Below are positions 21,619 to 37,818 of a DNA stretch of 46,651 nt, one piece after another (position 1 is the first letter of the stretch; each line of letters begins with the position of its first letter). The stretch is from an uncultured Candidatus Poseidoniales archaeon (GTDB taxonomy: Archaea; Thermoplasmatota; Poseidoniia; Poseidoniales; Poseidoniaceae), in the NCBI GenBank assembly GCA_905182635.1, contig CAJJCM010000002.1, positions 1-46,651 of the forward strand, given 5' to 3'. The position numbers and the translations under genes are program-made. The notes under the pieces were generated by a model. It was not told the origin of the DNA, did no database searches, and was given only the letters and a program-made list of their open reading frames with translations.

Positions 21619-23022
21619 ATGCTTCCAGATGATGCAGTCGACCGTATTGTAGCGGGTTGCCGAAGCATTGGTGCTCTCTGTCAAAGCCAAGGTGTTCAAC
21701 AATGGGAAATCGTGGCCACACAATCGTATGGGCACAGCATAGACATTGAAGCGGGTAAAATCGCCCTTGCTGCCGGAGGCGGTGAAGGTGGCTATGGTAT
21801 TCGGATTGTCGAAGATGGACGATTTGGTTATGCATATCTTGTCGATTTAGGCTCTGCAGATTATGCCATTCAACAAGCACGCGATATTGCTAAAGTATCG
21901 CCTTCTGTGAAGGGTTTTGTCCTTCCGAGTGAACAAGAGGCGAAAAAAGTAGGAGGATTGTTTGACAAGAACATCCTCAGTATTGGTCCCGAAGATTTAC
22001 TTGAACAGGCTGATGCGATTTTGAGTGAAGTTGCTTCCCTTGATGAACGAGCCGTCGTTACTGGCGGTGGCTTAGGCGTTGGAGCAAGTGCTGATGCGAT
22101 TTTTTCCAGTGAAGGGATCGAGTCCAGCGGTGTGACGACTTCACATGGAATTGGTGTTCAAGTTTCCATCGATGCCGATGATGAGTTGACCAGTTCATAC
22201 GAAGGTGATTCAAGTTGTCAACGCCTTCAGAATGTACCTGATTGTATTGCTGTTGCTGTTGATTGGGCACAGAAGACCCGTGGGCCTATTGAAGTCAATA
22301 CCGAAGCACATGACACTCCAGTTTTGATGACAAGTGAAGGTTTTTCACCGTTGTTTTCAATGGTCGTTCCTTCTGCTGTTCGTGGTGACCGGTTGGTTCG
22401 AAATGAATCATTCTGGTCTGGAAAGCAAGGTGAACTTGTGCTTGCAGACGACCTTTCACTCATCGATGATGGAAGAATGGAGGGCGGAAAATCGGCTTCT
22501 TCTCGAGATGGAGAAGGCGTTCCAACTCGCCGCCAAACCTTAGTCGAAAACGGCCGTCTTGTTGGTTCATTGTGGTCGACAAGAGATGCTGCACAACAAG
22601 TGGCTGAAGGCCGTATCGAACATGCAGAAACCAACGGTTGTGCAGTTCGAGGTAGTCATCAAAGTCCACCGGGTACTGGCTGTGCTGATTTACAAATGGT
22701 TTCCTCTCGAAAAAGCTCCTCGCAAGAGGCACTTCTTGAGCGAATGGAAGACGGTTACATCGTCCATAGCGTCATGGGGGCGCATACTGCGAATCCAACC
22801 AGTGGTGATTTCTCGGTTACATCGAGTACGCTCTTGCGGGTCGAGGGTGGAGAAATTCTAGGACCGGTTAAGCAAGCTGGGCTATCTGGTAATCTTGCTA
22901 AGGCTCTTTCTAAAGAAGTGTACCTTGGGAATGATGTTCGTATCCAAGGATCTTATTCATCCGGCAACATGCACCTTCCTGACGTCCTGTTGATGCAAGG
23001 ATTACGAATCAACCCCGCATAA
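21619..23022 (+). CDS. tldE: TldE/PmbA family protein
   Basis: GYGIRI, DGEGVPTRR, GAHTANPTSGDFS. No HExxxH. Directly follows tldD. Confidence 0.9.
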   Translation: MLPDDAVDRIVAGCRSIGALCQSQGVQQWEIVATQSYGHSIDIEAGKIALAAGGGEGGYGIRIVEDGRFGYAYLVDLGSADYAIQQARDIAKVSPSVKGFVLPSEQEAKKVGGLFDKNILSIGPEDLLEQADAILSEVASLDERAVVTGGGLGVGASADAIFSSEGIESSGVTTSHGIGVQVSIDADDELTSSYEGDSSCQRLQNVPDCIAVAVDWAQKTRGPIEVNTEAHDTPVLMTSEGFSPLFSMVVPSAVRGDRLVRNESFWSGKQGELVLADDLSLIDDGRMEGGKSASSRDGEGVPTRRQTLVENGRLVGSLWSTRDAAQQVAEGRIEHAETNGCAVRGSHQSPPGTGCADLQMVSSRKSSSQEALLERMEDGYIVHSVMGAHTANPTSGDFSVTSSTLLRVEGGEILGPVKQAGLSGNLAKALSKEVYLGNDVRIQGSYSSGNMHLPDVLLMQGLRINPA

Positions 23023-23161
23023 GTCTCTCAGTCGCTTGATTCGATAATCAACGGAAAGGAACAAAGTCCACGGCATTCTTTATGTCCTGTCGTCTCTCCT
23101 GTAGTTATCCATGGAGGTCAAGGGAGTGTACAGTCTCAACCAAACCGCACGAAAGCCCGCA

Positions 23162-23205
23162 GCCTGTTCTCCGTACAGGCCCCGAACGAACACGTCTGGC
23201 GGAGG
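23162..23205 (+). promoter_or_regulatory. Putative SD-sequestering RNA pseudoknot in the rpa leader
   Basis: Stem GCCTGT(23162-67)/ACAGGC(23175-80). The loop TCTCCGT is complementary, with G-U pairs, to GCGGAGG(23199-205), which overlaps the SD. Confidence 0.35.
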
Positions 23206-23213
23206 TCTTTGCA

Positions 23214-24908
23214 ATGTCTGAAAAATACGAAACGCACGTTAAATCGATACTCGCAGAATGTCCTGATGCCAATCCGGAGGAAGTATCTGCAGCCTTTGCA
23301 AAATACGAAACAGAATTCTTTATTCCGCCACAAGATGCTATGCGTTCGATTCTTCGACGCTTCAAGGGTGAAACAACACCTACTCCATCAGCAGGGACCT
23401 CTGGTTCATCCTCTTCAGCACCTAAACCCACACGTAAGGTGAGCCGATTAAGCGAATTGAAAGGCGACGACCGAGAAATCGAGATTGAAGTGGAAATTAT
23501 TTCCCACAATATTCGTGACCAAACGATTCGAGGCGAGGAAAAGCAAATCGCCTTTGGACTTCTTGAGGATAACCCTTGGGAAGAGAATGGTGAGAAAAAC
23601 CGTTGGGAATACAAAGATTGGGGCCCGAACTCCAATATTACTCCCGGTTCAGTCGTTCGTATTGAAGGTGCTTCAGTCAATGAATATCAGGGGAAGATGT
23701 CGTTGAACATCAATCAATCCACCCGTATCGCTGTTATTCGTGAAGGAACACGCCCTGTGACCGCCCCTGGCGAGGCTCAAGACATCTCGAGTTTGCCATC
23801 TGAGGGCTATGTCTGCATTGTTGGACGAATTCTTGCCACTCGCCCCGACCAGATTCACCGTAAGGATGGTACGGGCTCAATTGATATCATTCGAGGCCGC
23901 CTCGCAGATGAAACAGGTACTATTGGTTTCCTTTCATGGGAGCCTCTTGAACACGAAGTAGGAACGCTTCTCAAGATTGAAAGTGCACAAGTTCGAACGT
24001 TCCGAGATACACCTGAACTCAACTTCGGGCGGACAACAAAAATCGAAGTCTATCACGATAAGAATTTTGCAAATGTCGACGCACTCTCTGAACAGACCGT
24101 ACTGACTTTATCTGAACTCCGAGACGGAGCACGAGATGTTGACGCAGTCGTTCAAATTACTGAATGGGCAAAACGTTCGTTCACCCGTGATGGTGAAGAG
24201 CGCTTCCTCTGGTCGGGTCAAATCGCTGACCCAACCGGCCGTTGCAGAATGAGTGCATGGAGTGAATTGCCCATTACTGAAGACCAATTGCCGTTAACTG
24301 TTCGTCTCAAAGGCGTACGTGTGCGTGCCTGGCAAGGCATCCCCGATATCACCATTGACACAATCGATCAAGTCGAAATACTCGATGCACCTCCTTGGGA
24401 CAGCGAATTGGATTTGAAAAACCATACCGTTGAAGTCGCTTTGCATGAACTTTCTACCGGTGCAAGCCGAATCGGAATCTCGACCAGTGCAATTGTGGTT
24501 AGTGTTCGAGAAGATTCTGGCTTTATCAAACGGTGCACAGAATGCCGTCGAGTTCTCCGAGAAGGAGCTTGTGCTGATCACGGACCAAACGATGGTAACA
24601 ACGATATACGCCTGCGTTTGGCTATTGATGATGGACGTGCTAGTGTCTCTTTGTTGACGAATAAGGACGCAACATTGAGTCTTCTTGGAATGAATGAATC
24701 CGAACTTCAAGGTGCTATTGACGATGCTGGACAGATTGCTTTTGTTCAGTCCTTGCGTGAAAAGATGCTCGGGCGTAAAATCAATGCTTCAGGCCGTACC
24801 ATTGTCGATGAACAAGGTGCTATGCTGCTCGCAGATGGTGCTTCAATGATTGACGAAGATGCAGGATTACGGGCGACTGAAATCCGTGCTCAATGGAGGG
24901 TTGCTTGA
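23214..24908 (+). CDS. rpa: Replication protein A large subunit (multi-OB-fold ssDNA-binding protein with Zn finger)
   Basis: Repeated OB strands (LADETGTIGFLSW, IADPTGRCRMSAW, IDDGRAS) and CTEC...CADH Zn finger. GGAGGT SD precedes ATG 23214. Confidence 0.88.
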   Translation: MSEKYETHVKSILAECPDANPEEVSAAFAKYETEFFIPPQDAMRSILRRFKGETTPTPSAGTSGSSSSAPKPTRKVSRLSELKGDDREIEIEVEIISHNIRDQTIRGEEKQIAFGLLEDNPWEENGEKNRWEYKDWGPNSNITPGSVVRIEGASVNEYQGKMSLNINQSTRIAVIREGTRPVTAPGEAQDISSLPSEGYVCIVGRILATRPDQIHRKDGTGSIDIIRGRLADETGTIGFLSWEPLEHEVGTLLKIESAQVRTFRDTPELNFGRTTKIEVYHDKNFANVDALSEQTVLTLSELRDGARDVDAVVQITEWAKRSFTRDGEERFLWSGQIADPTGRCRMSAWSELPITEDQLPLTVRLKGVRVRAWQGIPDITIDTIDQVEILDAPPWDSELDLKNHTVEVALHELSTGASRIGISTSAIVVSVREDSGFIKRCTECRRVLREGACADHGPNDGNNDIRLRLAIDDGRASVSLLTNKDATLSLLGMNESELQGAIDDAGQIAFVQSLREKMLGRKINASGRTIVDEQGAMLLADGASMIDEDAGLRATEIRAQWRVA

Positions 24909-25837
24909 TGCAATCTGGAACACGTGCAAAGCGCCAACCTGCTTGGCACATGCTTGCCTCTGAATACAGTGAAGCTACGCTCAATGAGAAAGGCTCAGGT
25001 GAATATGACCCTTCCTTTGTCATCACGAAACTTGGCGCTAAAGTCAACAGAGTGGTCGTAGCGGGACTTTTGGAACGACTTGAAGTTCGAGAGACATCCA
25101 ACGGTTCAACACTCCACCAGGGACAAATGCGTGACCCATCAGGGGTCCATTACTTTTCAGTTGGAGATTATGCAACTGAATCAATGCGTGAACTTACGTT
25201 GGTTTTGGCTAAGAAACTCGAAGCTGGAGAGCCGGTACTTCTCCTCATGGTGGCTAAATCAAAATGGTATCAAACCGATGAAGGAGCAATCTATACTTCA
25301 CTTCGTCCTGAGGAAGCATGTGAGATTGATGCGCAACAGTATGCTCTTTGGCTGACTCGAACCTGTGAAGACACTCTACAGAGAATGAAGCATTTTTCTG
25401 ATTCGTTGTCGGCTGAACCTACACGAGAAGGATTGATTGGCGCAGGAATTCCGGAACACATGGTCGATGGGCTGCTTGTGTCTCGAAATCATTATGGTGA
25501 GATTGATATTGAGAATTATACCCTCAACATCATGCAAGCTTTGGATATTGCTGAAGGACGCATGGAGGCAGCCAGCCAGCCAGTCGCCGCACCTGCTCCA
25601 AATCAAGATGCAGATGCAGGTGAAGTTGCTACAGGTGACGAATCTGAGGTAAAGGAGACGATTATCTCGATTATTGAGCAACTTGACCAAGGCGATGGTG
25701 TCGATTTTGAAACTGTGTTAACCAATACAGTCGCACGTGGATTTGACCGAAGTTTGGCTGAAGATAAACTCGATGAACTCTCAAATGAAGGCACACTCCA
25801 CGAACCAAGATTTGGTTGGTTTAGAATCGTAGCCTGA
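24908..25837 (+). CDS. RPA-associated protein (RPA32-like: OB fold plus C-terminal winged helix)
   Basis: RQPAW...SE, TKLGAKVNRVVVAG, RDPSG, LRPE, C-terminal LHEPRFGWFR. TGATG stop/start coupling with rpa. Confidence 0.82.
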   Translation: MQSGTRAKRQPAWHMLASEYSEATLNEKGSGEYDPSFVITKLGAKVNRVVVAGLLERLEVRETSNGSTLHQGQMRDPSGVHYFSVGDYATESMRELTLVLAKKLEAGEPVLLLMVAKSKWYQTDEGAIYTSLRPEEACEIDAQQYALWLTRTCEDTLQRMKHFSDSLSAEPTREGLIGAGIPEHMVDGLLVSRNHYGEIDIENYTLNIMQALDIAEGRMEAASQPVAAPAPNQDADAGEVATGDESEVKETIISIIEQLDQGDGVDFETVLTNTVARGFDRSLAEDKLDELSNEGTLHEPRFGWFRIVA

Positions 25838-25897
25838 TGATTTTGACCCCCAACATTGAAGTCCTTACCACTGCGTGGGTAGAATAGAGGTCAACAT

Positions 25898-26251
25898 ATG
25901 GCTGGCATAGATTTTTTTATTCGCCCCGCATCAGGAACTACAAGCGCAGATTGGGTGCGTATACCCAATTGTGACATGAAAGTCCGTCTTACACGTCGCC
26001 TTACACGCACAATTATTCGTGGTGAGGAGGGCGACGACCTGCATGATGAAGGTTCCGAATCAGCCGTTTATACCGTTAAAGGAGAAATCGTGCTTGATGA
26101 TTACAAGCGAGTCCTTACCATGTTCCGGTCTGGCCAACCTTACATTCATGATCCATTTGAAGAACGAGATGTCAAAGTAATATTTGCATCGCTGGAATAC
26201 GATGGTTCAAATGAAATGTTCAAATTTGAATTACTCGAAGATATTGTGTGA
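25898..26251 (+). CDS. Small hypothetical protein resembling the DNA-circularization N-terminal / phage tail-hub fold
   Basis: GAGGT SD. Pattern RRL...RG..GDDLHDEG....YTVKG...DDY...G...HDPF...V...F.FEL.E. Ends 9 bp before the next gene. Confidence 0.6.
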   Translation: MAGIDFFIRPASGTTSADWVRIPNCDMKVRLTRRLTRTIIRGEEGDDLHDEGSESAVYTVKGEIVLDDYKRVLTMFRSGQPYIHDPFEERDVKVIFASLEYDGSNEMFKFELLEDIV

Positions 26252-26260
26252 GATGAGATT

Positions 26261-26842
26261 ATGCGAAAATTGGATGAGCAGAGAGAAGTTCTCTATGTCA
26301 TCCGAACATTGGATGTCTTGATGTCCTCAGGGGTTGGTCTTGAAGCAGCGATTCACACCATTGGAAGTGGCGGTTACGGCATCATTTCAGAAGATTTCTC
26401 AGGCATAATGACCCGTTTACAAAAAGGAAGCAGCCGTGGGTTAGGGTCTGAGTTGAAGAGTATGATGAACAAAGCAGGTTCGGAAGGCTACCGCCGACTC
26501 CTCAATACAATGTACACCAACGTCACACAGAACACTGACATCATTGAAACTATTCGAAAGCAAGGCGCACGTATGGAAAATGAACGTTCCGAGTCAGTCA
26601 CAAAATACATTGAAGAACTCGGTTCAGTCCCTGAAACTCTTCTTTCCATTGGTATGATTGGACCGATTATCTTAGCGATTGCCGGACTTATTCCACAGTT
26701 GATGAGCGGTGAGATGGGTGCATTCATGAAATTACCACCGACCGCCACCATCAACATCGTGGTAAATGTCGGACTCGCTTTGACATTGTTTGGGATGTTC
26801 ATGATTGGCTTGAAAGCCCATACGAAGGACCCGGGGTTGTGA
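26261..26842 (+). CDS. Type II secretion F-domain (TadB/TadC/PilC-like) platform protein
   Basis: LMSSGVGLEAAI...YGIISEDF T2SSF pattern followed by two TM helices. Confidence 0.8.
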   Translation: MRKLDEQREVLYVIRTLDVLMSSGVGLEAAIHTIGSGGYGIISEDFSGIMTRLQKGSSRGLGSELKSMMNKAGSEGYRRLLNTMYTNVTQNTDIIETIRKQGARMENERSESVTKYIEELGSVPETLLSIGMIGPIILAIAGLIPQLMSGEMGAFMKLPPTATINIVVNVGLALTLFGMFMIGLKAHTKDPGL

Positions 26843-27579
26843 TTTTCATGATATACGGGTTGATTGAAACATTCAACGAGAATCTCTTGTTGCTGGTGCT
26901 GCTTGTATTCGGTATAGCAAGTGCTGCTGGTGGAGTCCCTCCAATGCTTGAGCGCAAAAGGCGCCGTTCTATAGAAAACACACTCCCCTCTTTACTCGAA
27001 TCCCTCTCGGATTCAGTTGGTGCAGGACGTGGCATTCAAGAAGCGATGATGGAGCAATCCCGAACGCTTCCTGGCGTGCTTGGACAATTACTAAAAGAAA
27101 CTCTTGAAGAAAGCCATTCTTCCTCATTTGATGCTGCACTTGCTGCGTTTGCTGCAAAAACGCGCTCATCACAAGTCCAACGTGTCATGGTCTTGATTGA
27201 GACTGCGATTGAACAAGATGCCCCTCTCCAAGGCATCCTTTCGGATTTAGCAATGGATTACGAACGCTTGAACGATCTAATGAATAAGCGAGAAGAAGAG
27301 TTATTGGGCAAAGGTATACTCATCGTTCTCTTCATCAGCATCGGTTTGCCAGTGCTTATCGCCTTCATCGTTGGATTATTTACACCTGCGAACAAGGGTT
27401 TTCAAATCGATTCATTCAATGTCACCTTTTCACTTTTCTTTGGAGCAGCATCTGCAATTGCTATTGGCGTTTCAGGTCGAATGCTCGGGCGATTTAAAGA
27501 TGCACTTTGGTGGATGCCAGGGTGGGTTGCACTTTCAATGGGCCTCTATCTCGGGGCAGTCATAATGATTGGAGGATGA
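26839..27579 (+). CDS. Type II secretion F-domain (TadB/TadC/PilC-like) platform protein
   Basis: IENTLPSLLESLSDSVGAGRGIQEAM, SFDAALAAFAAKTRS, several TM helices. GTGA overlap with the preceding gene. Confidence 0.85.
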   Translation: MIFMIYGLIETFNENLLLLVLLVFGIASAAGGVPPMLERKRRRSIENTLPSLLESLSDSVGAGRGIQEAMMEQSRTLPGVLGQLLKETLEESHSSSFDAALAAFAAKTRSSQVQRVMVLIETAIEQDAPLQGILSDLAMDYERLNDLMNKREEELLGKGILIVLFISIGLPVLIAFIVGLFTPANKGFQIDSFNVTFSLFFGAASAIAIGVSGRMLGRFKDALWWMPGWVALSMGLYLGAVIMIGG

Positions 27580-27583
27580 AAAA

Positions 27584-28822
27584 ATGAGTGAACTAGTCTT
27601 AGCGCAATACGGTCGAGTAACAATTTATACTGAAGAGAATCATCCATCGCCGATTTATCACGTCGATGGAGCAATTGAACCAAATCCCTATGGAGACCTC
27701 GCGGTTCTTTTGGAAGATGATGCACTTGAAGAAGTGATGTACAATGGTGGAACACAATGTGTGAAAGTCGCCCACCGTGATCATGGTATGTGCCGAACAA
27801 ACCTTTGGGTTGATGACGATTCAGGAATTCAAATTGCCAAGAACATCGCCGCCTTTACCAACGTACCACTTGGTGATGGACCCGGCCTTGTTCCCATCTT
27901 CGATGGACGACTTCCCGATGGTTCCCGTGTCAACGGCACTATTCCACCGGTGACTCCTGATGGCCCTACGCTCACCATCCGTAAATTCAGAGAAGACCCA
28001 TTAACTATGATTGATTTAGTAAAGTTCGGTACGGTCAACTCCCGTCTTGCAGCAATGATGTGGGTCTGGATTGAAGGTCTCGACAGCCGCCCAGCAAACT
28101 TTGTTATTGCTGGTGGAACAGGTTCTGGTAAAACTACCACACTCAATTGTCTCGGGATGTTTATTCCATGGGACCGCCGTTTGCTCACAGTAGAAGATAC
28201 CGCTGAATTGCAAGTCTATCACGACCACTGGCTTCGTATGGAGACTCGCCGACAACGCGCAGATGGAACCCCTGAAGTCGATATGAATGATTGTCTCAAG
28301 TCAAGTCTTCGTATGCGACCTGATCGAATCATTGTAGGAGAAGTTCGTGGACCTGAAGCAGCAACATTGCTTACAGCCATGAACACCGGCCACGATGGTT
28401 CCTTCGGTTCACTGCACGCTAATACGGCTCAGGAAACGGTCACTCGTATGATTAACCCTCCAATGAATGTCCCCCCAATTATGCTCGGCGGACTTGATTT
28501 AATCATCATTCAAGCACGACTCCACGTCAATGGAAAAACGGTTCGTGTCATTACTGAAGTCGCTGAGGTTGCAGGTATGGAGGGTGACAAACCTCGTTTA
28601 AACATCATCTGGAAGTACAATGCTGCCACTGGTCAAATCGAGGAAACTGGAATACCTTCCAAACTTCGCGAAGTAATTTGTTCAGCTGCAGGTATCTCAC
28701 CCGATGTGTTTGAAAAACACGTTGCACAACGTCAAGCGATTATCAAAGACTTGGCACGCCGTGATATTCACGACATCCAAACAGTAACACAAGTTATCCA
28801 AAACTTCTACGCATCGCGTTGA
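27584..28822 (+). CDS. CpaF/TadA/archaeal PilB-family secretion ATPase
   Basis: [59 protein letters not shown]. Confidence 0.95.
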
Positions 28823-28828
28823 AGAGAA

Positions 28829-30703
28829 TTAACCACGTAAGCGGGCGAGTAAGTCATCGATAGCATCGATTTTTCCGCGAGCGGAATTGAGTCGGTCAGA
28901 TGCATCACTGACGGATTCAGCAATGACGATTTCCACATCCGGTTGTTGTTCAGTTTTCGGCTTGAATGCTTCTGCAAGTGCTTTCAGTTCAGTCACAATA
29001 GCGTCGACTTGATTATCTGATATCATGATTCCAGGTGCAATCCGAGGAATTTCCGAAGGGGAAATAAAACCTAATTCAGCGCCAATGATTCCAGCACAAG
29101 CAAGAACCCGTGGTCGTAGGTCAATCGTGTTGACCTCATAGCCTTTCGATTCAAGGAATCGAATCACCAAGGCTTGTTGTGAGTCTGAGAAACTTCCTTC
29201 ACTTGATTCAAGGATAGTTTCCACCAATTCTTCAAACCCAGCAATGTTTCGTTCAAGGCGGTCAACCGTCATTCGTTCAATATCGGTGAAATGAACAGCA
29301 CCATGTTGGAGGACACGAAGAATACGATTACGACGTGCAATCGATGGGTCTTGTAGTGCTTCTTCTTGATGGATTTCTATATGCAGGTCGAAAAGGGCAT
29401 GGAGTCTTCCAGAAATACTTGGGATTCTCAAATCGAGACCCATGTCATGTCCAATTTGTTCAAAAGTCATTCGTGCACGAACTAAATCACCATCCGAAGA
29501 TGCGAGGGTATTATTCAACTGACCGCGGAGCACATCACGAGCGTTTTCAAAATTACGCAGTGCTTCACGCTCTCTCCAAGAGTTTGGCATTGCAAAGACT
29601 GCATCCTTTTCAGTTTGAGATCGGAACTCAAGTTCCATCAAAGTATTACGAATTCCGTCGCTTACCGCAGGGATTTCAACTGCAAAACCATGGCTGGAGA
29701 GGCTGCGGATGAAAGCTTCGAGGTCTTCTCCATCACTGGTGCTGCTCACTGCTAAGAAATCTCTACCTGCTGATTCAATTTCTGCTGCCCGAGCTGTCAA
29801 CTCAAGTAAGACTGCTTCAACTTCGAGGCTATGTTCGACAACCTCTGCAACATGAGCACTTTGAACCATTGCTGGTGTGCTATCAGTGTCGATTTCCCTT
29901 TGTCCTGCTCGAAGAACATCATCGATTGAGGCAGCAAGTGGGGCGCGTGAGATTGGAATGCCTTCTTGAGCAAGTTCAGTTCGCATTTCAGTTTCTTCTT
30001 CGAACGTCCATCCTTCTGGATGTTGAGACACAAATGTCTCGGCCGTTTCGAGTACGACATCCTGTTCATCAATGTGAGTTTGTCCGGGCGATTCATTCTT
30101 AGAATCTTCAGTTGGACTCGGTATTTCAACGGCTGAATCGCCACTTCGTGGCCGACGCAGACTCTTCTTGACTTTACCCCAGCCACCTTGTTGATAGGCC
30201 AAAACGCCCGCGATACGAACAAGTAAAGCCTGTTTATTCCCAGAGAGGGGTAATTCCAATGTCTTACACAATTCATGCAATTCATCGCGAGTCAATGAGT
30301 CCAGTGATTCAGGAACGAATTGTTTTGGGTCGTGATTAAGATGCAGATACAGGCGTTGACGCCGAGCACGAACAGAGCCTGATTTTTTGATACCAAATAT
30401 TCCAAGAATTTCACCGATTTCGGCGTTCATGAGGTTTTTAATTCCATTTGGTGAAAGGTCCCATTCGTCCAATATAAGTTGTTGAATCAATCGTCCTCTG
30501 ACCACTTCAACAGAGCCATTTTTTGGTAAGTTGTAAGTGACCGCTAGCTCTTTGAGTCCATCAAAACGCGCTTGATAGAGTTCGTTCAAGAGTTCGCCTT
30601 TTGCAGTCACAGTCTCACCTACAGTGGAGTTTCGGTTCAAAGGGGTATATGTGTCTTCGCTGTGTTGCGATGCGGAAAAGGGCAATTCTTCGACTGTTTT
30701 CAT
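28829..30703 (-). CDS. Protein with three N-terminal SAP-like motifs and a long acidic helical C-terminal region
   Basis: LKELAVTYNLPKNGSVEVVRGRL, IGEILGIFGIKKSGSVRARRQRL, LTRDELHELCKTLELPLSGNKQALLVRI (best SAP match). GGAGG SD precedes ATG 30703. Confidence 0.75.
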   Translation of the reverse strand: MKTVEELPFSASQHSEDTYTPLNRNSTVGETVTAKGELLNELYQARFDGLKELAVTYNLPKNGSVEVVRGRLIQQLILDEWDLSPNGIKNLMNAEIGEILGIFGIKKSGSVRARRQRLYLHLNHDPKQFVPESLDSLTRDELHELCKTLELPLSGNKQALLVRIAGVLAYQQGGWGKVKKSLRRPRSGDSAVEIPSPTEDSKNESPGQTHIDEQDVVLETAETFVSQHPEGWTFEEETEMRTELAQEGIPISRAPLAASIDDVLRAGQREIDTDSTPAMVQSAHVAEVVEHSLEVEAVLLELTARAAEIESAGRDFLAVSSTSDGEDLEAFIRSLSSHGFAVEIPAVSDGIRNTLMELEFRSQTEKDAVFAMPNSWREREALRNFENARDVLRGQLNNTLASSDGDLVRARMTFEQIGHDMGLDLRIPSISGRLHALFDLHIEIHQEEALQDPSIARRNRILRVLQHGAVHFTDIERMTVDRLERNIAGFEELVETILESSEGSFSDSQQALVIRFLESKGYEVNTIDLRPRVLACAGIIGAELGFISPSEIPRIAPGIMISDNQVDAIVTELKALAEAFKPKTEQQPDVEIVIAESVSDASDRLNSARGKIDAIDDLLARLRG

Positions 30704-30775
30704 CCCTCCATTTGTGTGTAGAGTGTAGATTCTACGGGCAATGGTTTGAAGAGTATGAAGCACTGGAGAGTCGTG

Positions 30776-31357
30776 ATGGCAAGAACTGTGAAGGCTACAA
30801 AACTCGCTCTCAAGGAAGCGAATGGGCTTGTCGAATCCCTACGGGAACTGGTTTGGTCAGATTTGAAAACTCAGTATGCTGGTTTTGAAGAAATACTTCA
30901 TTCACGAACAAGTGATGCTGAAGAAGCAATTCTTGATGCCACCAAAGGAAAGTTGGCAATTATTGCTGGAATTGGCGTGATGCGAACAGAACTCGAACGA
31001 GCTCAACGTCGATTTTCCCGCTCAAATGACCCCAATGAGTTACGAGAACTTTTAGTCGATTTAGGAGGTCGAATCTCCCGTTTGAGAGAAGCCAATGACA
31101 ACATTGTTGAATCGCTTAAATCAGTATTGAACCCAAACTTGTCCGGCGTTGAAATTGTTGAAAAGTTTGCTTCTGACCTTCAACGCTCAGCCGGGACATG
31201 GGAGCGTAACGGCCGCGAAATCGATGAATCGATTCTCGAATTATGCGATGGTAATGAACCGGCTGAACTGGGTGACTTTGAGCAACACATTACCAAACAA
31301 GGGTATGGAGCATTACTCGAACATCCTTCTCATTCCTCTTCTGATGAAGAGGCTTGA
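30776..31357 (+). CDS. Hypothetical alpha-helical/coiled-coil protein
   Basis: Heptad-like charged helical sequence. Divergent from the SAP gene. GGAG SD precedes ATG 30776. Confidence 0.65.
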   Translation: MARTVKATKLALKEANGLVESLRELVWSDLKTQYAGFEEILHSRTSDAEEAILDATKGKLAIIAGIGVMRTELERAQRRFSRSNDPNELRELLVDLGGRISRLREANDNIVESLKSVLNPNLSGVEIVEKFASDLQRSAGTWERNGREIDESILELCDGNEPAELGDFEQHITKQGYGALLEHPSHSSSDEEA

Positions 31358-32517
31358 AGTGAATGGAGATTCAATAAAGCGGGCCTTGCAAGGCTGTATT
31401 CTTCGGGAAGTCCAGGGTATTTCCTCACCATTTCTTCATGTTCAGTTTGCATATTTTCAAGCAGGATTGAAAATTCTTTGAGAACGTTAACCATTCCCAT
31501 GTGGCTTTCTTCAAGTTCGCAAATACGTTCTGCACTTGCAGTTACAGTCCCAGAAAAGTTCAACGTTTCAATTTTTATTTCCAAGCGTGGACTCGTAGAC
31601 AAACCCTTCTTTGGAACTGACCGGGCCCATTTTTCAGCCCCAATTAAACGCTTACCACTTACTTTCCCTTGAGTAAGCGTTGAGTCAAGTAATGAATCAT
31701 TGGTGAAGTCGTCATTCGAGCGCTGTGCTTCGTTGAGAATCGTCTTAAATTTACGCTGTTCGACAAAGATGCCAACAATTGGATGAATTTCTTCAGGCAA
31801 CGAGTCAAGTAAGGCCCCTTCGATTCTATGAGCGAGGTATGCACTTGGATCGAACATCGGCAGAACAATCGCACTCGGGAATCCCGTACGGCTGACCAGT
31901 AAAGTGAATCCATACAATGGTGGTGGGATGAAATGGGTGCGTTCAGGGTTTTCACGTTGCAGGCCAAGTGTATGACGGCGTGATTTGAACTTCAATGCCG
32001 AATGTTCACCTCGTGAGACGATGAATCCTTCCAATAATTGATCTTGGCGACATTCTTCAATCCAATGGATTCTATCTTCTTCATCTAAATTGAGATACGC
32101 ATCAAGTTTGCCAATACGGTCAGCAAATTGTTCACTCGTCAGTAGGATGAGGTCGTTACGAAGACGGCGCATTTGCCGTCGAAGCAGTTCATTGTCACAG
32201 ACGACTAAGGCCTGTGAACACAAATATTCTGGTTTGTCACCAGAGACGAGGACCCATGTTGGTTCTCGGCGTGGTAGGATTCCAACGATCGATAATCCCT
32301 CAACATCGAGGTTTCTCCAATCCAAGGCACTCATTGCTACAAGGTCGCCAGTACCCTTTTGGAGAGTTTCAATTGCTGATTCAATATGGGGGAGTTGGAC
32401 CAATTTGAAATCAAATTCCTTGCGGTTTTGTTCGATGGTTCGTTCAATTTGAAGACGTACACCATCACGGCGTGATGCAGTGGTTAGGACTTCAAGTCGA
32501 ACCTTCTCTGTCAACAC
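31330..32517 (-). CDS. Divergent porphobilinogen deaminase (HemC)-like protein
   Basis: DLVAMSALDW resembles DLAVHSLKD, GLSIVGILPRREP resembles GL...REDP, and LLRRQMRRLRNDL resembles SLRR..QL...RPDL. The GGC cofactor motif is absent. Start at GTG 32517 or TTG 32514 after GAGGTGA. Confidence 0.65.
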   Translation of the reverse strand: MLTEKVRLEVLTTASRRDGVRLQIERTIEQNRKEFDFKLVQLPHIESAIETLQKGTGDLVAMSALDWRNLDVEGLSIVGILPRREPTWVLVSGDKPEYLCSQALVVCDNELLRRQMRRLRNDLILLTSEQFADRIGKLDAYLNLDEEDRIHWIEECRQDQLLEGFIVSRGEHSALKFKSRRHTLGLQRENPERTHFIPPPLYGFTLLVSRTGFPSAIVLPMFDPSAYLAHRIEGALLDSLPEEIHPIVGIFVEQRKFKTILNEAQRSNDDFTNDSLLDSTLTQGKVSGKRLIGAEKWARSVPKKGLSTSPRLEIKIETLNFSGTVTASAERICELEESHMGMVNVLKEFSILLENMQTEHEEMVRKYPGLPEEYSLARPALLNLHSLQASSSEEE

Positions 32518-32595
32518 ATCACCTCGGCGAGGATGAATCCTCACATTACAAGGCCGGAGACTACGGGTTAAGAAGGACACCCCTGTAGGAGAGTC

Positions 32596-33579
32596 GTGGC
32601 CAGTGTTGAGTTGAAAGCCAGTGACCGCCTCGAAACAATGAGGTTTTTGGTCGATGCCGAGCTTGAGGCGTTGATTGAAAATGAAATCAAGAACGGCTCG
32701 GGACAAGTTGCTGAACTGTGTGGCTCAGTACTCCTTGCAGGTGGTAAACGCCTTCGCCCATTATTGATTCTCCTGGCCCATGAAATCGCTGGAGGTACTG
32801 ATGTCGAGGAGATTATGCCGCTTGCACTGGCATCTGAAATGATTCACACAGCAACCTTAGTCCATGATGATATCAATGATGAAGCCTCACATCGACGAGG
32901 AATCGAAACAATTCATTCTCGAGTCGGTCTTCCAAAAGCTGTAATTGCTGGTGATTGGTTATTTACACAAGGTTTCGCACTTGGTGGGCAATATGATGAA
33001 CGAATTGTCCGTATCTTAGCCCAATATTGTGCTGACCTTGCAGTTTCAGAATTCGAACAACTTGACCATGTTCTTGACCTTACGACTTCTCCCGAGGATT
33101 ATCTCAGTATTGTTCGAGGAAAAACGGCTGGACCTTTTGCAGCTGGGTGCTATGCTGCGGGCTTAGTAGCGGGACTTTCTGAAGAGCAAGCATCTTCGCT
33201 CAAATGTTTTGGAATGGAACTCGGAATCGCCTTCCAATTGGTCGATGATTTACTTGACTTACGAGGTGATGAACGAATGGGTAAACCCAGAGGAGCGGAC
33301 GTCATTGAAGGGAAAATGACACTCCCCTTGATTCATGCATTGACTCTTTCCCACGGTGAAAAGCGACAACGTCTCGCCTACATCATAGAAAATTTTACCG
33401 ATGATTCGTTTGATGAATTGATGGTGTTGCTCAATCATTCTGGCAGTTTGCATTATGCAGAAATATTAGTGAGTACTCATTTAGAACGAGCAATCGCAGC
33501 ACTCGAAATTTTTCCAGAAAGCGATGCAAAGAGATTGATGTTCCATGTCACTGATTATGTCATGCGTCGACATGTGTGA
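32596..33579 (+). CDS. trans-Polyprenyl diphosphate synthase (IdsA/IspB family)
   Basis: GGKRLRP, HTATLVHDDIND...RRG (FARM), KTA, FQLVDDLLD (SARM), GKPRGADVIEGKMTLP. Confidence 0.95.
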   Translation: MASVELKASDRLETMRFLVDAELEALIENEIKNGSGQVAELCGSVLLAGGKRLRPLLILLAHEIAGGTDVEEIMPLALASEMIHTATLVHDDINDEASHRRGIETIHSRVGLPKAVIAGDWLFTQGFALGGQYDERIVRILAQYCADLAVSEFEQLDHVLDLTTSPEDYLSIVRGKTAGPFAAGCYAAGLVAGLSEEQASSLKCFGMELGIAFQLVDDLLDLRGDERMGKPRGADVIEGKMTLPLIHALTLSHGEKRQRLAYIIENFTDDSFDELMVLLNHSGSLHYAEILVSTHLERAIAALEIFPESDAKRLMFHVTDYVMRRHV

Positions 33580-33587
33580 GGGATTAT

Positions 33588-34733
33588 ATGGCTCGTAAAG
33601 AGGTCGAACATCGCCAAGTGATCGTCATTGGTGCAGGGCCTGCAGGTTCCGCATGTGCGCAACGACTTGCTGAAGATGGCATTGATGTTCTGATGTTAGA
33701 ACGTAGAGAGATTGTTGGAAACCCTGCTCAATGCGGTGAATGTATACCGAATTGGGGTGAGGTTGTTGGTACTTTTTCTCATCTTGATGACCATCAATGG
33801 CTAAAAGATTATTTTGAATTCCCTGACCGTTTAAGACTTCATGATCTTGATAATATGCGAGTCTTCCTTCCTTCGGGAAAAGCCTACCATTTCGATTTGG
33901 ATGCTTTCGCAGGTCATCGTTTACACTTTGATGGATTCCTTTGTGACAAGGCGATTAACGCTGGTGCTGAGATTCATACCGGTGAAGCACTGACTCGGAT
34001 TCAACACCAATCAAAACTTGACCGAGACCTTTTGATTACGAGCCATGGCCGGTATTCGTTTGATTTCTTGATTGATGCAAGTGGTTCATTGGCACATGTT
34101 GCTCGGCTACGCCATGGTGGCGATGAACGCTATAGACCAAAAGACCAAGTTCCTACTGTCTATGCTCAAGTCCAGGGAAAAGTACCAGAAACCTTTGATG
34201 TATTTTTGGGTTCAGTTGCCCCCTCTGGCTATGCGTGGATTATTCCAAAGGGTCCAGACACTGCAAATGTTGGTATTGGAGTGCGTGCAGGATATTTGGA
34301 AGGTAATTTGAAAGACCATTTGATTGAATTTTGTGCCTCTTTAGATTTTGAAATACTTTCTTGGGGTGGAGGCTGGATTCCGATGGGTGGTCCAGTGAAA
34401 ACAATGGTTGATGGAACAACATTGGCTGTTGGTGATGCGGCTGGACTCGTCATGCCAAGTAACGGTGGCGGTATTTCTCAAGCGATTATTTCTGGATGTT
34501 TTGCAGCAGAAGCGATTCTTGACAATCTTCGAGATGGAGCGTCTTTGACCATGTATGAGACTCGAGTTCGGGCCTCGATGGGGAGGGCGTTGAAGAATTC
34601 CCTTCGTTCCAAGAATATGGGCTATGCGTTCTTCAAAGGGGACTTGGTTACAGAAGCGTTGTTGAGAATCCTTGGTCCAATCGGTGGAATCAAACGAGCC
34701 ATGGAGTGCGATAAGCCGATGTGGCTTTTCTGA
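33588..34733 (+). CDS. Geranylgeranyl reductase family flavoprotein
   Basis: VIGAGPAG, CGEC, APSGYAWIIPKG (PxxYxWxFP-like), ANVGIG, VGDAAGLVMPSNGGGI. Confidence 0.92.
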   Translation: MARKEVEHRQVIVIGAGPAGSACAQRLAEDGIDVLMLERREIVGNPAQCGECIPNWGEVVGTFSHLDDHQWLKDYFEFPDRLRLHDLDNMRVFLPSGKAYHFDLDAFAGHRLHFDGFLCDKAINAGAEIHTGEALTRIQHQSKLDRDLLITSHGRYSFDFLIDASGSLAHVARLRHGGDERYRPKDQVPTVYAQVQGKVPETFDVFLGSVAPSGYAWIIPKGPDTANVGIGVRAGYLEGNLKDHLIEFCASLDFEILSWGGGWIPMGGPVKTMVDGTTLAVGDAAGLVMPSNGGGISQAIISGCFAAEAILDNLRDGASLTMYETRVRASMGRALKNSLRSKNMGYAFFKGDLVTEALLRILGPIGGIKRAMECDKPMWLF

Positions 34734-34807
34734 AAGGGCGCAAAAGGGGTATTCTGACCTTCTTTTGAAACGGTTGGTTCAAGTCCTATCGATACTTCAG
34801 TCGTTTC

Positions 34808-35305
34808 ATGCGCAATGTGCGGAGGTCACTTGACAATGAGGCAGTCAGCCCCGTTATCGCCACCGTATTGCTGCTTGCAATCACAGTTATGCTTTCGAGC
34901 ATGGTCTTCGTTTTGATGCAAGGTACACTTACCACGACTGAGAAACCACCTGCACAAGCGACCGTCAGTGTTCGTGGATTGTCAAACGGTTTCCACGTGA
35001 TTCGTATGACGTCTCTAGACCAAACAATAGACCCAGCTAAGATTCAATATGACCTTTATCCGGAGAATTTAGATGACGGTGACCCGATTCGTGGTACAGT
35101 CAGTGACTCGAATGTCTATGGGTTGATTGGAGCCAACGTTTCTTTCCATGATCGTGATGCAGGTTATTCTGTGAGTCAAGGTGATTATTTTGTCATCGAC
35201 TCGACGACGGTAGGCTCTGATTCAGGCACCTGGCGATTCAAACTCGTTGATTTATCCACCAATTCGGTAATGATTGATGTTATTTTACCGCCGATAGAAA
35301 TTTAG
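34808..35305 (+). CDS. Archaeal type IV pilin (Pilin_N, class III signal peptide)
   Basis: Short charged leader, then EA/VSPVIATVLLLAITVMLSSMVF. Confidence 0.9.
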   Translation: MRNVRRSLDNEAVSPVIATVLLLAITVMLSSMVFVLMQGTLTTTEKPPAQATVSVRGLSNGFHVIRMTSLDQTIDPAKIQYDLYPENLDDGDPIRGTVSDSNVYGLIGANVSFHDRDAGYSVSQGDYFVIDSTTVGSDSGTWRFKLVDLSTNSVMIDVILPPIEI

Positions 35306-36310
35306 TTAGCCACCGATGAATGACATCTCTACGGGATGTCTTGTTTCTTTGAGTTGAGTTCTCAATTCTGAATACCGGTCTTCTCGATGTAGCCAGATAT
35401 CTCGAATAATCGTTGCAATCTCTTGTTCATCCGCACCAAAGCGAAGGATTCCACGTAAGTCAAATCCTTGTTCTGAAAATAAGCATGTGTAGATTGAACC
35501 ATGTGCAGAAAGGCGTGCACGAGAACAATCCCCGCAAAACGGTTTGGTCACCGATTCGATGAAACCAACGGTTGAACCATCAACGAGGCGCCATAATCGG
35601 GCAACATCAGAGGGGTGAGCAGCAGCTCTTGGTTCAAGTGGTCCGAAATGGTCTCGTAGAACCTCCCTCATCTCTTGTCCACTCATTACCGAATCGAGGT
35701 TCCAATTATTAGTGGTTCCAACATCCATGAATTCAATGAACCGGACGATTATGTTGCGTTCGCTACAGGCTTTTGTTAAAGGGACTATTTGAGACTCATT
35801 GACGCCTTTTTTGACGACGCAATTGACTTTAACTGGTAAGCCAATCTTTTGAGCAACATCAATTCCCTTGAAGACATCTTCAGGCGAACTTTTACTGTCT
35901 GTAATCGTTTGAAATAATTCTGTATGCACAGCATCAAGGCTAACGGTGATTCGGTTGAGACCACTTTTGAACAGTATCTCTGCATGACGTTCAAGCAGCA
36001 CACCGTTGGTGGTTAATGCGATATCAAGTTCAGAATCAAGGTCACGTAGTAAAGCGATAAAGACATGTAAATCTCTTCGAAGAAGTGGCTCTCCACCGGT
36101 GATTCTGACTTTTGAAAGCCCCAAAGGGAGCAACGATGCAACCACACTTGTCATTTCTTCGTAACTCAAAATCTCCTCTTTTGCCAAAAAAACATGCTCA
36201 GGACCAAAGTTTTCTCTCGGCATACAATATGTGCATCGGAAATTGCATCGGTCAGTGATGGAGATTCGAAGGTCCCTCAATGGGCGACCGAGTGAATCCT
36301 GCAACGACAT
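35306..36310 (-). CDS. moaA: GTP 3',8-cyclase (molybdenum cofactor biosynthesis radical SAM enzyme)
   Basis: LRISITDRCNFRCTYCMP, TGGEPLLR, RFIEFMDVG, FCGDCSRARL...TCLF, C-terminal MSFIGG. ATG 36310. Confidence 0.96.
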   Translation of the reverse strand: MSLQDSLGRPLRDLRISITDRCNFRCTYCMPRENFGPEHVFLAKEEILSYEEMTSVVASLLPLGLSKVRITGGEPLLRRDLHVFIALLRDLDSELDIALTTNGVLLERHAEILFKSGLNRITVSLDAVHTELFQTITDSKSSPEDVFKGIDVAQKIGLPVKVNCVVKKGVNESQIVPLTKACSERNIIVRFIEFMDVGTTNNWNLDSVMSGQEMREVLRDHFGPLEPRAAAHPSDVARLWRLVDGSTVGFIESVTKPFCGDCSRARLSAHGSIYTCLFSEQGFDLRGILRFGADEQEIATIIRDIWLHREDRYSELRTQLKETRHPVEMSFIGG

Positions 36311-36366
36311 AGTGCAGGCTATGCGACTGAGGCTTTTTATTCTGTGTTGCAAGGGTTGATGGGTGC

Positions 36367-37818
36367 TTGGAGTCTGGGACCATCATGGGGAGAGGTTGGG
36401 TGAAGCGTTGGACCTCATCTGGCAAAGATCACCGACGTAACGACCTTCGTATTCTTCGAATCACGCCGAGGTCGAATTCGACTCCGATTCAATGGCGGTT
36501 ACCGCCTTCAAAGAGCCACTTAATTCGTGCACTTGCTTTGTTTTCTCAGACCCAACAACACGTCACATTGGAGAACGTCGCCTCTGCAGGTGACGATGTG
36601 AGGGCAATGCGTTGCAGCCTTGCGCAAATGGGTGTTCATTTCGATGACTATGACCGTGAAGGTCAGTTACTTCAGCAAAAGAATCCGATGGACCTTGGCC
36701 CACACCCCAATTCGGTACAGTGGGTCCTTACCGGTGTCGGTCCGTTCGGTTTCAAACGTCCAGCCAGCGTACTCAATGCTGCGAATTCAGGCACAGCCCT
36801 CCGGTTTTTAGCAGGTATTGCAGCCCGAATGGAAGGTCCAATCATGTTGGATGGTGACCATTCACTGCGTCAGAGAGACTCTGATGCCCTGTGGGATTCG
36901 CTCAAACAGGCTGGGGTAGAGGTCTCGATTGGCCAAGGAAAAGAACGTTTACCTGTACTTCTCAGTGGTCCTTGGAAAAAGGAGAAACTTGAACAAGGCA
37001 TCGAACTTGACATCACCCGTTCAAGCCAACCGCTTTCGTCATGGATGCTGGCATCCGCAGCACTTCCAGTGGACATACAACTCAACCTTCAGGGTAAAGG
37101 TGTCTCAAACCGTCATTCAAAATTGACGGCTGAAATGATTCATCTCACCGGTGGAAAGGTTGAACTGGAAGGCGGCCAGTGTATGCTTTCACCTTGGGAA
37201 CCATCGTTCGAGGGGACCTACACGGTCCCTGGTGATGCTTCAATGGCTTCGTTTGCATTCTTGGCGACTCATTGCCTCGATGCAGAAGTAGAACTCCACG
37301 GTTGGCCGGGCGATGAACAAGCCATCGGGCATGAACTTCTTTCCAAATACGCTATAGAATGTGGCATTAAGTGGGATGGTGACCTGTTAAAAAGTATTGG
37401 TTCAACCCTCCCAGTTACGTTGGATGTCATCGATTCAAATGACATTCTACCCCCTCTTGCTGCATTGCTTTCACTAGGGCCTGGTGGGCGAATCAGCGGA
37501 GCTGCACATGCGGTTCACAAAGAGAGTGACCGCTTATCTCGAACAGTAGAATTGCTCAGTTTCTTTGGAATTCACGCAACCTTGCACGATGATGGAATCG
37601 AAGTCGAAGGCAATCAAAAGCCAACCATGCCCCAACAACCAGTGCCGACATTCAACGACCATCGTTTATTCATGACAGCAGTACTTCTTGCCTCAAAAAC
37701 AGGTGGTGAAGTGATTGGACATACACTTCATCATGTTGCTGATGAAGCCTTTGTGCAGCGTTTACAAGAGGCTGGTGTTCAAATTGAAGCGACTACAACA
37801 CCCTCGCTTGCTGATTAA
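36367..37818 (+). CDS. aroA: 3-phosphoshikimate 1-carboxyvinyltransferase (EPSP synthase), divergent
   Basis: PPSKSHLIRAL, NSGTALRF, SSQ, PGDAS, KESDRL, DHRLFM. Exact start uncertain. Confidence 0.88.
   Translation: MESGTIMGRGWVKRWTSSGKDHRRNDLRILRITPRSNSTPIQWRLPPSKSHLIRALALFSQTQQHVTLENVASAGDDVRAMRCSLAQMGVHFDDYDREGQLLQQKNPMDLGPHPNSVQWVLTGVGPFGFKRPASVLNAANSGTALRFLAGIAARMEGPIMLDGDHSLRQRDSDALWDSLKQAGVEVSIGQGKERLPVLLSGPWKKEKLEQGIELDITRSSQPLSSWMLASAALPVDIQLNLQGKGVSNRHSKLTAEMIHLTGGKVELEGGQCMLSPWEPSFEGTYTVPGDASMASFAFLATHCLDAEVELHGWPGDEQAIGHELLSKYAIECGIKWDGDLLKSIGSTLPVTLDVIDSNDILPPLAALLSLGPGGRISGAAHAVHKESDRLSRTVELLSFFGIHATLHDDGIEVEGNQKPTMPQQPVPTFNDHRLFMTAVLLASKTGGEVIGHTLHHVADEAFVQRLQEAGVQIEATTTPSLAD

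Follow-up and report, generated by a model that had tools for sequence, protein, structure and literature searches.

Type IV filament cores in which the membrane platform is split between two genes are represented by the Epd pilus of Methanococcus and by the bacterial Tad core (CpaF-TadB-TadC), both of which combine an assembly ATPase with two single-domain T2SSF proteins. In the main text of a recent survey of type IV filaments (TFF), split platform genes are described as common in euryarchaea and taken as the hallmark of archaeal system 1, to which Epd belongs, while system 2 is characterised by a single-gene platform and by ATPases with extended N-termini (10.64898/2026.04.22.720090). ATPase/TadC loci which lack a pilin gene and use pilins encoded elsewhere are common in euryarchaea, and PilB3-PilC3 of Haloferax volcanii (system 2) is an operon of this kind (PMC4858521). 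The present analysis deals with a four-gene cassette (p117, F1, F2 and ATPase; positions 25898–28822, forward strand) from an uncultured Candidatus Poseidoniales archaeon. The cassette is part of a stretch of 46,651 nucleotides (contig CAJJCM010000002.1 of assembly GCA_905182635.1), called the window in the following; the genome to which it belongs (G000) is a 1.33-Mb assembly of 66.5% completeness. The last three genes code for a likely Tad/Epd-like pilus core, and the first one for a small protein predicted with high confidence to adopt the fold of phage tail tubes, tail hubs and Hcp.

The cassette is opened by p117 (25898–26251, +), taken from the list of open reading frames (ORFs), which encodes an acidic soluble protein of 117 amino acids (aa) with a pI of 4.7. 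It is followed by F1 (26261–26842, +), a TadB-like platform protein of 193 aa with one T2SSF domain (residues 14–140, Pfam E 7e-8), by F2 (26839–27579, +), a TadC-like platform protein of 246 aa likewise with one T2SSF domain (residues 53–177, Pfam E 1e-8), and by the ATPase gene (27584–28822, +). The latter codes for a compact CpaF/TadA/FlaI-like assembly ATPase (Pfam T2SSE, E 5e-41) of 412 aa when counted from the ATG; an alternative TTG start at position 27569 is likewise open. The genes are separated by 9, −4 and 4 bases, F1 and F2 thus overlapping by 4. The T2SSF scores of both platform proteins (32.9 and 35.3 bits) lie above the Pfam cut-off of 25.2. In the ATPase, the Walker A (GTGSGKTT), Asp, Walker B and His boxes are intact and invariant across 19 orthologues, over which the mean column identity is 83%. 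A T2SSE ATPase with adjoining polytopic T2SSF membrane proteins, the combination that marks the core of a type IV filament, is therefore present, and none of the four genes encodes a pilin or a prepilin peptidase. This composition had been read from the sequence in an earlier note, and the ORF coordinates and spacings, together with the Pfam matches, agree with it on the four tightly coupled genes, the two single-domain T2SSF proteins, the compact CpaF/PilB-type ATPase, the missing pilin and peptidase genes, and a lone pilin gene at position 34808.

All four genes are conserved as ORFs in related genomes. RNA-library contigs from four metatranscriptome runs (four studies) cover the four genes and bridge every gene junction, although such contigs cannot prove a single transcript. 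A Shine-Dalgarno-like AGAGGT (25886–25891, +), located 7–12 nucleotides (nt) before the ATG of p117, is kept in most of 12 same-genus loci. No match to Rfam was obtained over the whole window, and a scan with bacterial-type promoter and terminator models, which are unsuited to archaea, stayed at or below the shuffled background.

Judged by its gene layout and by the closest relative of the ATPase in the PDB, the cassette is likely Tad/Epd-like. Like the Epd and Tad cores, it combines an ATPase with two single-domain T2SSF genes; it has a compact ATPase whose closest solved relative is CpaF (PDB, E 7e-64), besides GspE of Archaeoglobus (2oap) and FlaI. It differs from both in having no pilin, peptidase or other accessory genes and in the additional first gene with its predicted tail-tube fold. 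Moreover, the passages of the survey that were consulted do not name Thermoplasmatota among the lineages with system 1 (10.64898/2026.04.22.720090). An ATPase/platform operon without pilin recalls PilB3-PilC3 of H. volcanii, with its pilins supplied from elsewhere (PMC4858521), but system 2 is distinguished from the cassette by the platform, here in two genes, and by the ATPase, here compact. It is rather a second non-archaellum pilus system of the same genome, on contig C29 (L057:8019-12195), that resembles system 2, with an ATPase of 508 aa showing a weak PilB3_C hint and two large T2SSF proteins.

Among the NCBIfam models, the cassette ATPase reached 242 bits with FlaI (cut-off 550) and 209 bits with TadA, both under the cut-off. 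The possibility that the cassette is an archaellum was rejected from this FlaI score and because a true archaellum operon is found on contig C4 (L058:2223-9729), where FlaI scores 677 bits, above the cut-off; in that operon ArlJ, ArlH, ArlG, ArlF and two flagellins match weakly, below their cut-offs. A type IV pilus core located beside genes of DNA metabolism is also reminiscent of the Ups pili of Sulfolobus and of bacterial competence pili. However, the match of F2 to UpsF is weak (26 bits, cut-off 400), the match to ComGA amounts to 57 bits (cut-off 300), and the DNA-binding neighbours of the cassette are bystanders, as detailed below.

The linkage of p117 with the pilus genes was followed across the order Poseidoniales. 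The order p117-F1-F2-ATPase was found in 28 of 28 other loci carrying an operon-type p117, distributed over three families and with p117 identities down to 41%; in this count F1 and F2 directly follow p117, and the ATPase is included wherever the fetched stretch reaches it. F1 always adjoins p117, with identities of 35–90% for F1 and 41–94% for p117. Outside the window's own family, p117 has diverged to 41–57% identity and F1/F2 to 34–54%. In 10 of 12 same-genus loci, the TGA with which p117 ends is at the same time part of the ribosome site GAGGTGA of F1 (TGAGGTGA). One of the loci (L010, G022:C41) is irregular in that its F1 orthologue is split into two aligned segments with about 400 nt between them, perhaps owing to an inserted sequence, to disruption of the gene or to faulty assembly; F2 there extends beyond the end of the fetched stretch.

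ATPase orthologues, defined by at least 72% identity, are present in 49 of 49, 1 of 1 and 12 of 50 genomes of the three families, and their identity within the order is 72–95%. The operon-type p117 was found in ATPase-bearing genera and not in four sampled ATPase-lacking genera (g5, g7, g8, g10), as judged from separate samples. Five ATPase-less genomes (91–97% complete, four genera) keep RPA1, RPA2, the SAP-motif gene, a 458-aa gene, GGPPS and GGR in the same order as the window. When this region was compared, 5 of 5 of them lacked precisely the four cassette genes, the SAP gene lying directly next to RPA2. The genes p117, F1, F2 and ATPase behave as one insertion/deletion unit. Because exactly these four genes are jointly absent from all five genomes, p117 belongs to the pilus cassette. 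The conserved synteny of p117 with the T2SSF and ATPase genes, which had been proposed as a check in the earlier note, is thereby established for the related genomes.

The structure of p117 was predicted with AlphaFold2 from an alignment of 29 rows, which resulted in a model with a pLDDT of 90.1 and a pTM of 0.78. The model comprises a short strand, a long hairpin (residues 20–39 and 46–63), one helix and three further strands. In a Foldseek search of the PDB, the top matches were the tail tubes of monocin, diffocin, lambda (gpV) and a gene transfer agent (GTA), and baseplate chains of Mu and Milano (E 4e-5 to 5e-4, TMq 0.52–0.71), the tail tubes being matched with E 4e-5 and TMq 0.63–0.71. 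The top matches in BFVD were tail proteins as well, including 'DNA circulation, N-terminal' and DUF6046. VIA-align, a comparison independent of Foldseek, was run against 48,161 representative chains and gave matches with Z 10.3–7.1. In 48 of the 50 matches listed, the title refers to a phage tail, an injection system or Hcp. Tube and Hcp matches fill ranks 1–31 (Z 10.3–7.9), with 100–116 of the 117 residues aligned and a root-mean-square deviation (rmsd) of 2.4–3.6 Å for those at Z 8–10. Pyocin PA0626 (6u5b_h), a solved homologue of gpU of phage P2 (E 3e-13), was found at rank 11 (Z 9.4, rmsd 3.4 Å, 114 residues); as its Z differs by no more than 1 unit from that of the best rows, it is not separable from the tail tubes. 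A tail-tube/hub/Hcp-type fold is thus predicted for p117 with high confidence, and the match does not single out DNA_circ_N or GpU from tail tubes and Hcp.

No similarity to these proteins was detected at the sequence level. Searches of p117 against Pfam, NCBIfam, PHROGs and PDB sequences gave no match, and none of 29 members of the p117 family matched DNA_circ_N (PF07157) or Phage_P2_GpU (PF06995) in Pfam, even with E up to 10. By hhalign, the family profile obtained a probability of 0.1% with P2 gpU and of 0.2% with gpD. Protein language-model neighbours included GpU (0.91, 163 shared features) and DNA_circ_N (0.90, 155), both under the guide of 170 features and hence leads only. The membership in the DNA_circ_N/P2 gpU family suggested in the earlier note thus holds for the fold and not for the sequence family. 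In its predicted fold, p117 is like tail tubes, tube initiators and hubs (lambda gpV, monocin MttP, diffocin, GTA, P2 gpU/PA0626, Mu, Milano) and Hcp of the type VI secretion system (T6SS), the match extending over almost all of its 117 residues and including the long beta-hairpin and the single helix. It differs from these phage, tailocin and Hcp proteins in that no sequence similarity, no tail-gene neighbours and no relatives on viral contigs were found and that it occupies a stable chromosomal position. Among IMG/VR contigs, 18 pattern matches to the family alignment were obtained, of which none was confirmed, and no sheath, baseplate, tape-measure or capsid gene was seen in the listed neighbourhood of p117. 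The possibility that p117 is a prophage remnant was rejected since other phage genes are missing, the position is stable across an order and the conservation is strong.

The family is narrow, with 59 clusters at 50% identity among 1.84 billion representatives. A total of 181 close relatives was obtained, with 65–91% identity among the 120 listed; these are unnamed or 'hypothetical', and the named ones all come from Poseidoniales-type archaea. Among 301 genomes of the phylum, p117 matches were found in 60, namely in 42 of 42 of the window's family and 9 of 21 of a second family of the order, while outside the order only 8 genomes were matched, including a marginal case with E 0.008. The most conserved stretches are the acidic hairpin tip GxEGDDLxDEGxES and GQPxIHDPFEERDVK, and an RxxxR motif is nearly invariant. 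Neither a signal peptide nor a membrane segment was detected in p117. In the family tree, the Poseidoniales copies form a clade (100/99) apart from distant homologues; the branching order of operon-type and stand-alone copies is left unresolved by the tree, and no direction of recruitment can be read from it. A stand-alone paralogue is also carried by the window's own genome (contig C43:6-371, L013), followed there by a 544-aa ORF that is SelO-like by eye; further ones are at L014-L017, L022, L032 and L033. No conserved neighbour of the stand-alone paralogue was found across the loci compared.

The pilin gene located 6 kb downstream of the cassette (34808–35305, +) codes for a PilA-like type IV pilin of 165 aa (Pilin_N, E 1e-8). 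Orthologues of this pilin and of the ATPase occur in the same 62 of 100 genomes; neither was found in the other 38, and no genome has only one of the two. In the window's family, 47 of 49 genomes have the pilin on the contig of the ATPase, 0.08–6.0 kb further downstream, according to coordinates compared by hand; in one genus (G289), it is the pilin and not the SAP gene that directly follows the ATPase. The genes located in the window between the cassette and the pilin are retained by cassette-less genomes, in which both cassette and pilin are missing; separate losses of the two are implied if the layout of the window was that of the ancestor. An archaellum-type ATPase (36–37% identical, frames of about 580 aa) persists in two genera without cassette and pilin, so the pattern is not simply the loss of all appendages. 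In a distant lineage (G177), a pilin of 30% identity is found 2.6 kb from the module. There, an archaeal Nre gene (DNA-repair-associated) adjoins the pilin near the ATPase module (L052:265-1521), probably by coincidence. The 165-aa pilin is most likely the best candidate substrate of the cassette.

The enzyme that would process this pilin was searched for with the Pfam model Peptidase_A24, which matched nothing in G000 or in five genomes of 91–97% completeness (G003, G009, G016, G075, G289). Pilins are present in all six, and G000 also has archaellins. A candidate prepilin peptidase is a protein of about 340 aa with an Arc_PepC_II domain, encoded away from the cassette in 5 of 5 related genomes searched (2 above the cut-off), the catalytic part of the peptidase being probably too divergent for the Peptidase_A24 model. 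Many Poseidoniales also contain frames of 4,500–5,500 aa with a type IV pilin-like N-terminus (e.g. G105:C19:25946 and G033:C9:8720). Their counterpart in G000 is a frame of 1,553 aa on a short contig (C31:4127). These giant proteins may be adhesins handled by a pilus machine.

On its upstream side, the cassette is flanked by two co-directional genes. RPA1 (23082–24908, +) codes for an RPA large subunit of 608 aa, matched by NCBIfam PRK07218 with 263 bits, under its cut-off; RPA2 (24893–25837, +) codes for an RPA32-like subunit of 314 aa with weak similarity to the solved RPA32 of Pyrococcus (E 9e-4). The RPA genes named in the earlier note are thus retained with these reservations. Downstream and convergent with the ATPase is the SAP gene (28829–30763, −), encoding a protein of 644 aa (Pfam SAP, E 1e-6). 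It had been described as a triple-SAP protein; one SAP motif passes Pfam, and the other two SAP-like repeats are recognised by eye only. In cassette-less genomes the SAP protein measures only about 310–335 aa and aligns within residues 51–285 of the 644-aa protein (mostly about 57–224). All three flanking genes lie outside the pilus system. RPA1 and RPA2, ending 60 nt upstream of p117, and the convergent SAP gene were seen in this arrangement in three families, and the gap between RPA2 and p117 is bridged by RNA-library contigs in two runs. The span from the rpa genes to the ATPase, for which metatranscriptome reads had been proposed as a check, is therefore covered at its junctions by such contigs.

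The spacer between RPA2 and p117 contains a conserved motif of 20 nt, CCCCCAACATTGAAGTCCTT (25847–25866, +), with the palindromic core CTTSAAG; it precedes the start of p117 by about 45 nt. The motif is shared by 12 of 12 loci of the same genus, and in other families the core could be made out at 4 of 6 loci. A 12-mer of the motif is unique in the 1.33-Mb assembly. When a 10-mer was used for a regulon search in G000, no enrichment was found (8 occurrences against about 5 expected). Judging from its conservation, the motif may serve the cassette as a promoter or as a site for a regulator, and it suggests that the cassette has its own control site.

The explanation proposed here, towards which we lean with some caution, is that the cassette forms a Tad/Epd-like pilus core with a ring of p117 docking on its motor. 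The cassette would then be the cytoplasmic-membrane core of a type IV pilus of the 'system 1'-like kind, in which a hexameric ATPase of the CpaF/FlaI type would drive a platform made of two single-domain TadB/TadC-like proteins, and this platform would extract pilins from the membrane for assembly into a filament. Both the prepilin peptidase and the pilin, for which the PilA-like protein encoded at 34808 is the most likely candidate, would be supplied from elsewhere in the genome, an arrangement shared with other pilus loci of euryarchaea, and the output of the pilus would be adhesion. The p117 protein would be cytoplasmic and translationally coupled to the platform genes. As suggested by its fold, it may form a ring by means of the long beta-hairpin; this ring would dock through the acidic tip GxEGDDLxDEGxES on the cytoplasmic face of the motor, either on the ATPase hexamer or on the platform, and act there as scaffold, adaptor or gate. 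A role of p117 in the motor is put forward because of its inheritance with the whole cassette, its translational coupling, and a divergence similar to that of F1/F2. For the p117 part taken by itself, a lineage-specific scaffold, adaptor or gate docked as a ring on the motor, the chances are considered roughly even. A narrower version, in which a domesticated tail-tube/Hcp-type ring is stacked coaxially on the ATPase or the platform as stator, adaptor or gated conduit, seems rather unlikely. The four-chain complex prediction of p117, F1, F2 and ATPase, with a score of 0.00 and a mark of 0.32, weighs neither for nor against binding.

A number of observations weigh against a ring on the motor or weaken the evidence for it, and several of them would fit a p117 that is sufficient in itself, that is, a tail-tube/Hcp-like ring or chaperone unrelated to the pilus motor and merely riding on the cassette transcript, whose Hcp-like lumen might hold or stabilise another client such as a surface or secreted protein. 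The related genomes are not independent samples, and the cassette-lacking genera may represent a single loss; the alignment behind the p117 model is shallow (29 rows, Neff 2.9); the RNA-library contigs could stem from DNA carried over; and the pilin could be part of the system on C29 instead, as the two are distributed among the genomes in much the same way. Stand-alone paralogues (45–53% identity), which occur in many Poseidoniales without a conserved neighbour, and distant homologues (26–34%) are located away from T2SSF and ATPase genes in 15 of 15 loci, and one genome (G030) has a p117 paralogue and no ATPase, from which it follows that the p117 family can work alone. In other Thermoplasmatota, none of seven distant homologues adjoins T2SSF or ATPase genes, and four of the seven, from two families, are directly downstream, on the same strand, of genes for surface proteins of 860–1260 aa with signal peptide, which hints at a link to cell-surface biology. 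These four (L025, L026, L030 and L031, in G044, G055, G177 and G203) are 26–32% identical and about 100 aa long; the surface protein upstream is an S8 protease with CARDB in one family and contains PKD/NosD or Big_13 in the other. Conversely, the motor module exists without p117: ATPase orthologues of sister lineages (49–55% identical) have no adjoining p117 in 9 of 9 loci examined, and a search of five of those sister families with the p117 profile gave no match, hence the motor does not need p117. Clustering of the ATPase with an ordinary adhesion-pilus PilB that lacks this partner had been named in the earlier note as an outcome that would speak against the association; the sister lineages bear this out in part, while the linkage within Poseidoniales is kept. 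Seven of the nine sister loci keep platform genes, which precede the ATPase. In one sister family (L054, G060:C40; G050:C325 and G050:C98) the ATPase orthologue is tandem-duplicated in a single frame of 862–903 aa, and no platform gene adjoining it was found by BLAST. Against a self-sufficient p117 stand the absence of the operon copy along with F1, F2 and ATPase in 5 of 5 genomes with retained flanks, the position and the F1 coupling kept in all 28 loci of three families, and a divergence about equal to that of F1/F2 (41–57% and 34–54%). It is regarded as a possible, if doubtful, account. A small beta-barrel regulator of the ATPase, comparable to the PilZ-type partners of PilB and not a structural ring, is a further reading of p117. 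Bacterial PilZ proteins bind PilB-type ATPases, the RxxxR motif of p117 is nearly invariant, and a PilZ chain (3kyf) appears at rank 47 of VIA-align (Z 7.1, 85 residues aligned). The tail-tube/Hcp matches, however, score higher and cover more of the protein, the second PilZ motif (D/NxSxxG) was not seen by eye, and signalling by cyclic di-GMP (c-di-GMP) is, to our knowledge, not established in archaea; a PilZ-like role is considered quite improbable.

The flanking genes are at the origin of two other readings. The earlier note had raised the possibility that cassette, RPA and SAP genes make up an undescribed machine for DNA uptake or transfer; in such a machine, the tail-tube-like ring would be the DNA conduit. 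Tail tubes do conduct DNA, and the co-directional RPA genes, the convergent SAP gene and the RNA-library contigs across the gap between RPA2 and p117 would agree with such a machine. But the basis of this proposal is removed because RPA and SAP genes adjoin each other with or without the cassette: RPA2 and SAP, back to back in 5 of 5 cassette-less genomes, are neighbours in their own right, and in G289 the SAP gene is not beside the ATPase. In the sister lineages, the module is surrounded by housekeeping genes, namely PPDK, a gene for a membrane protein resembling Frag1, and others that were named by eye from translations (PurM, Csl4, PIN-like, FabG and Trm5-like). In addition, the conserved spacer motif suggests a control site of the cassette's own, p117 has no signal peptide or membrane segment and hence cannot span the envelope, and no nuclease, helicase or ComEC-like gene was seen in the listed stretch 22000–36500. 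The RPA and SAP genes mark the borders of the cassette and are bystanders, not partners, and a DNA machine is given very little chance. Equally remote is the idea that p117 is the RPA14-like small third subunit of a heterotrimeric RPA, and thus a replication and not a pilus gene. The RPA of Pyrococcus is a trimer with a 14-kDa subunit, p117 has 117 aa and directly follows the RPA32-like gene, and its three strands, helix and further strands superficially recall an oligonucleotide/oligosaccharide-binding (OB) fold with a helix. It was nevertheless rejected, as RPA1 and RPA2 persist without p117 in the five genomes and in lineages without a detected p117 homologue, and no RPA14 or OB-fold chain is among the matches listed by either fold search or obtained in the PDB profile search with E up to 10. 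Furthermore, p117 is 9 nt from F1 as opposed to 60 nt from RPA2, and its paralogues are never beside RPA genes.

Taken as a whole, the cassette is an ordinary pilus core with an unexpected and well-supported accessory fold. Viral tails, tailocins, injection systems and T6SS are the settings in which the tail-tube fold is otherwise encountered. In the literature searched, no tail-tube-like protein in an archaeal pilus locus and no description of this cassette was found, although supplements may list loci of Thermoplasmata; in the main text of the TFF survey, the terms 'tail', 'Hcp' and 'Poseidoni' have 0 occurrences (10.64898/2026.04.22.720090). If true, a ring on the motor would unite two lineages of machines that had not been seen in combination before, and the wider p117 family would represent cellular, non-viral tail-tube proteins in Thermoplasmatota. 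A cellular tail-tube family with one copy fixed in a pilus operon would then be a new recruitment of a viral building block, and p117 offers a concrete target for structural work. The appearance of a DNA machine, on the other hand, is traced to bystander genes at the borders of the cassette. Poseidoniales (Marine Group II) are uncultured and are described as the most abundant archaea of surface ocean waters, with an ecology thought to be shaped by attachment to particles (PMC6461757). In this cassette, and not in the archaellum alone, all Poseidoniaceae and 12 of the 50 Thalassarchaeaceae-like genomes sampled may possess the core of a pilus for adhesion.

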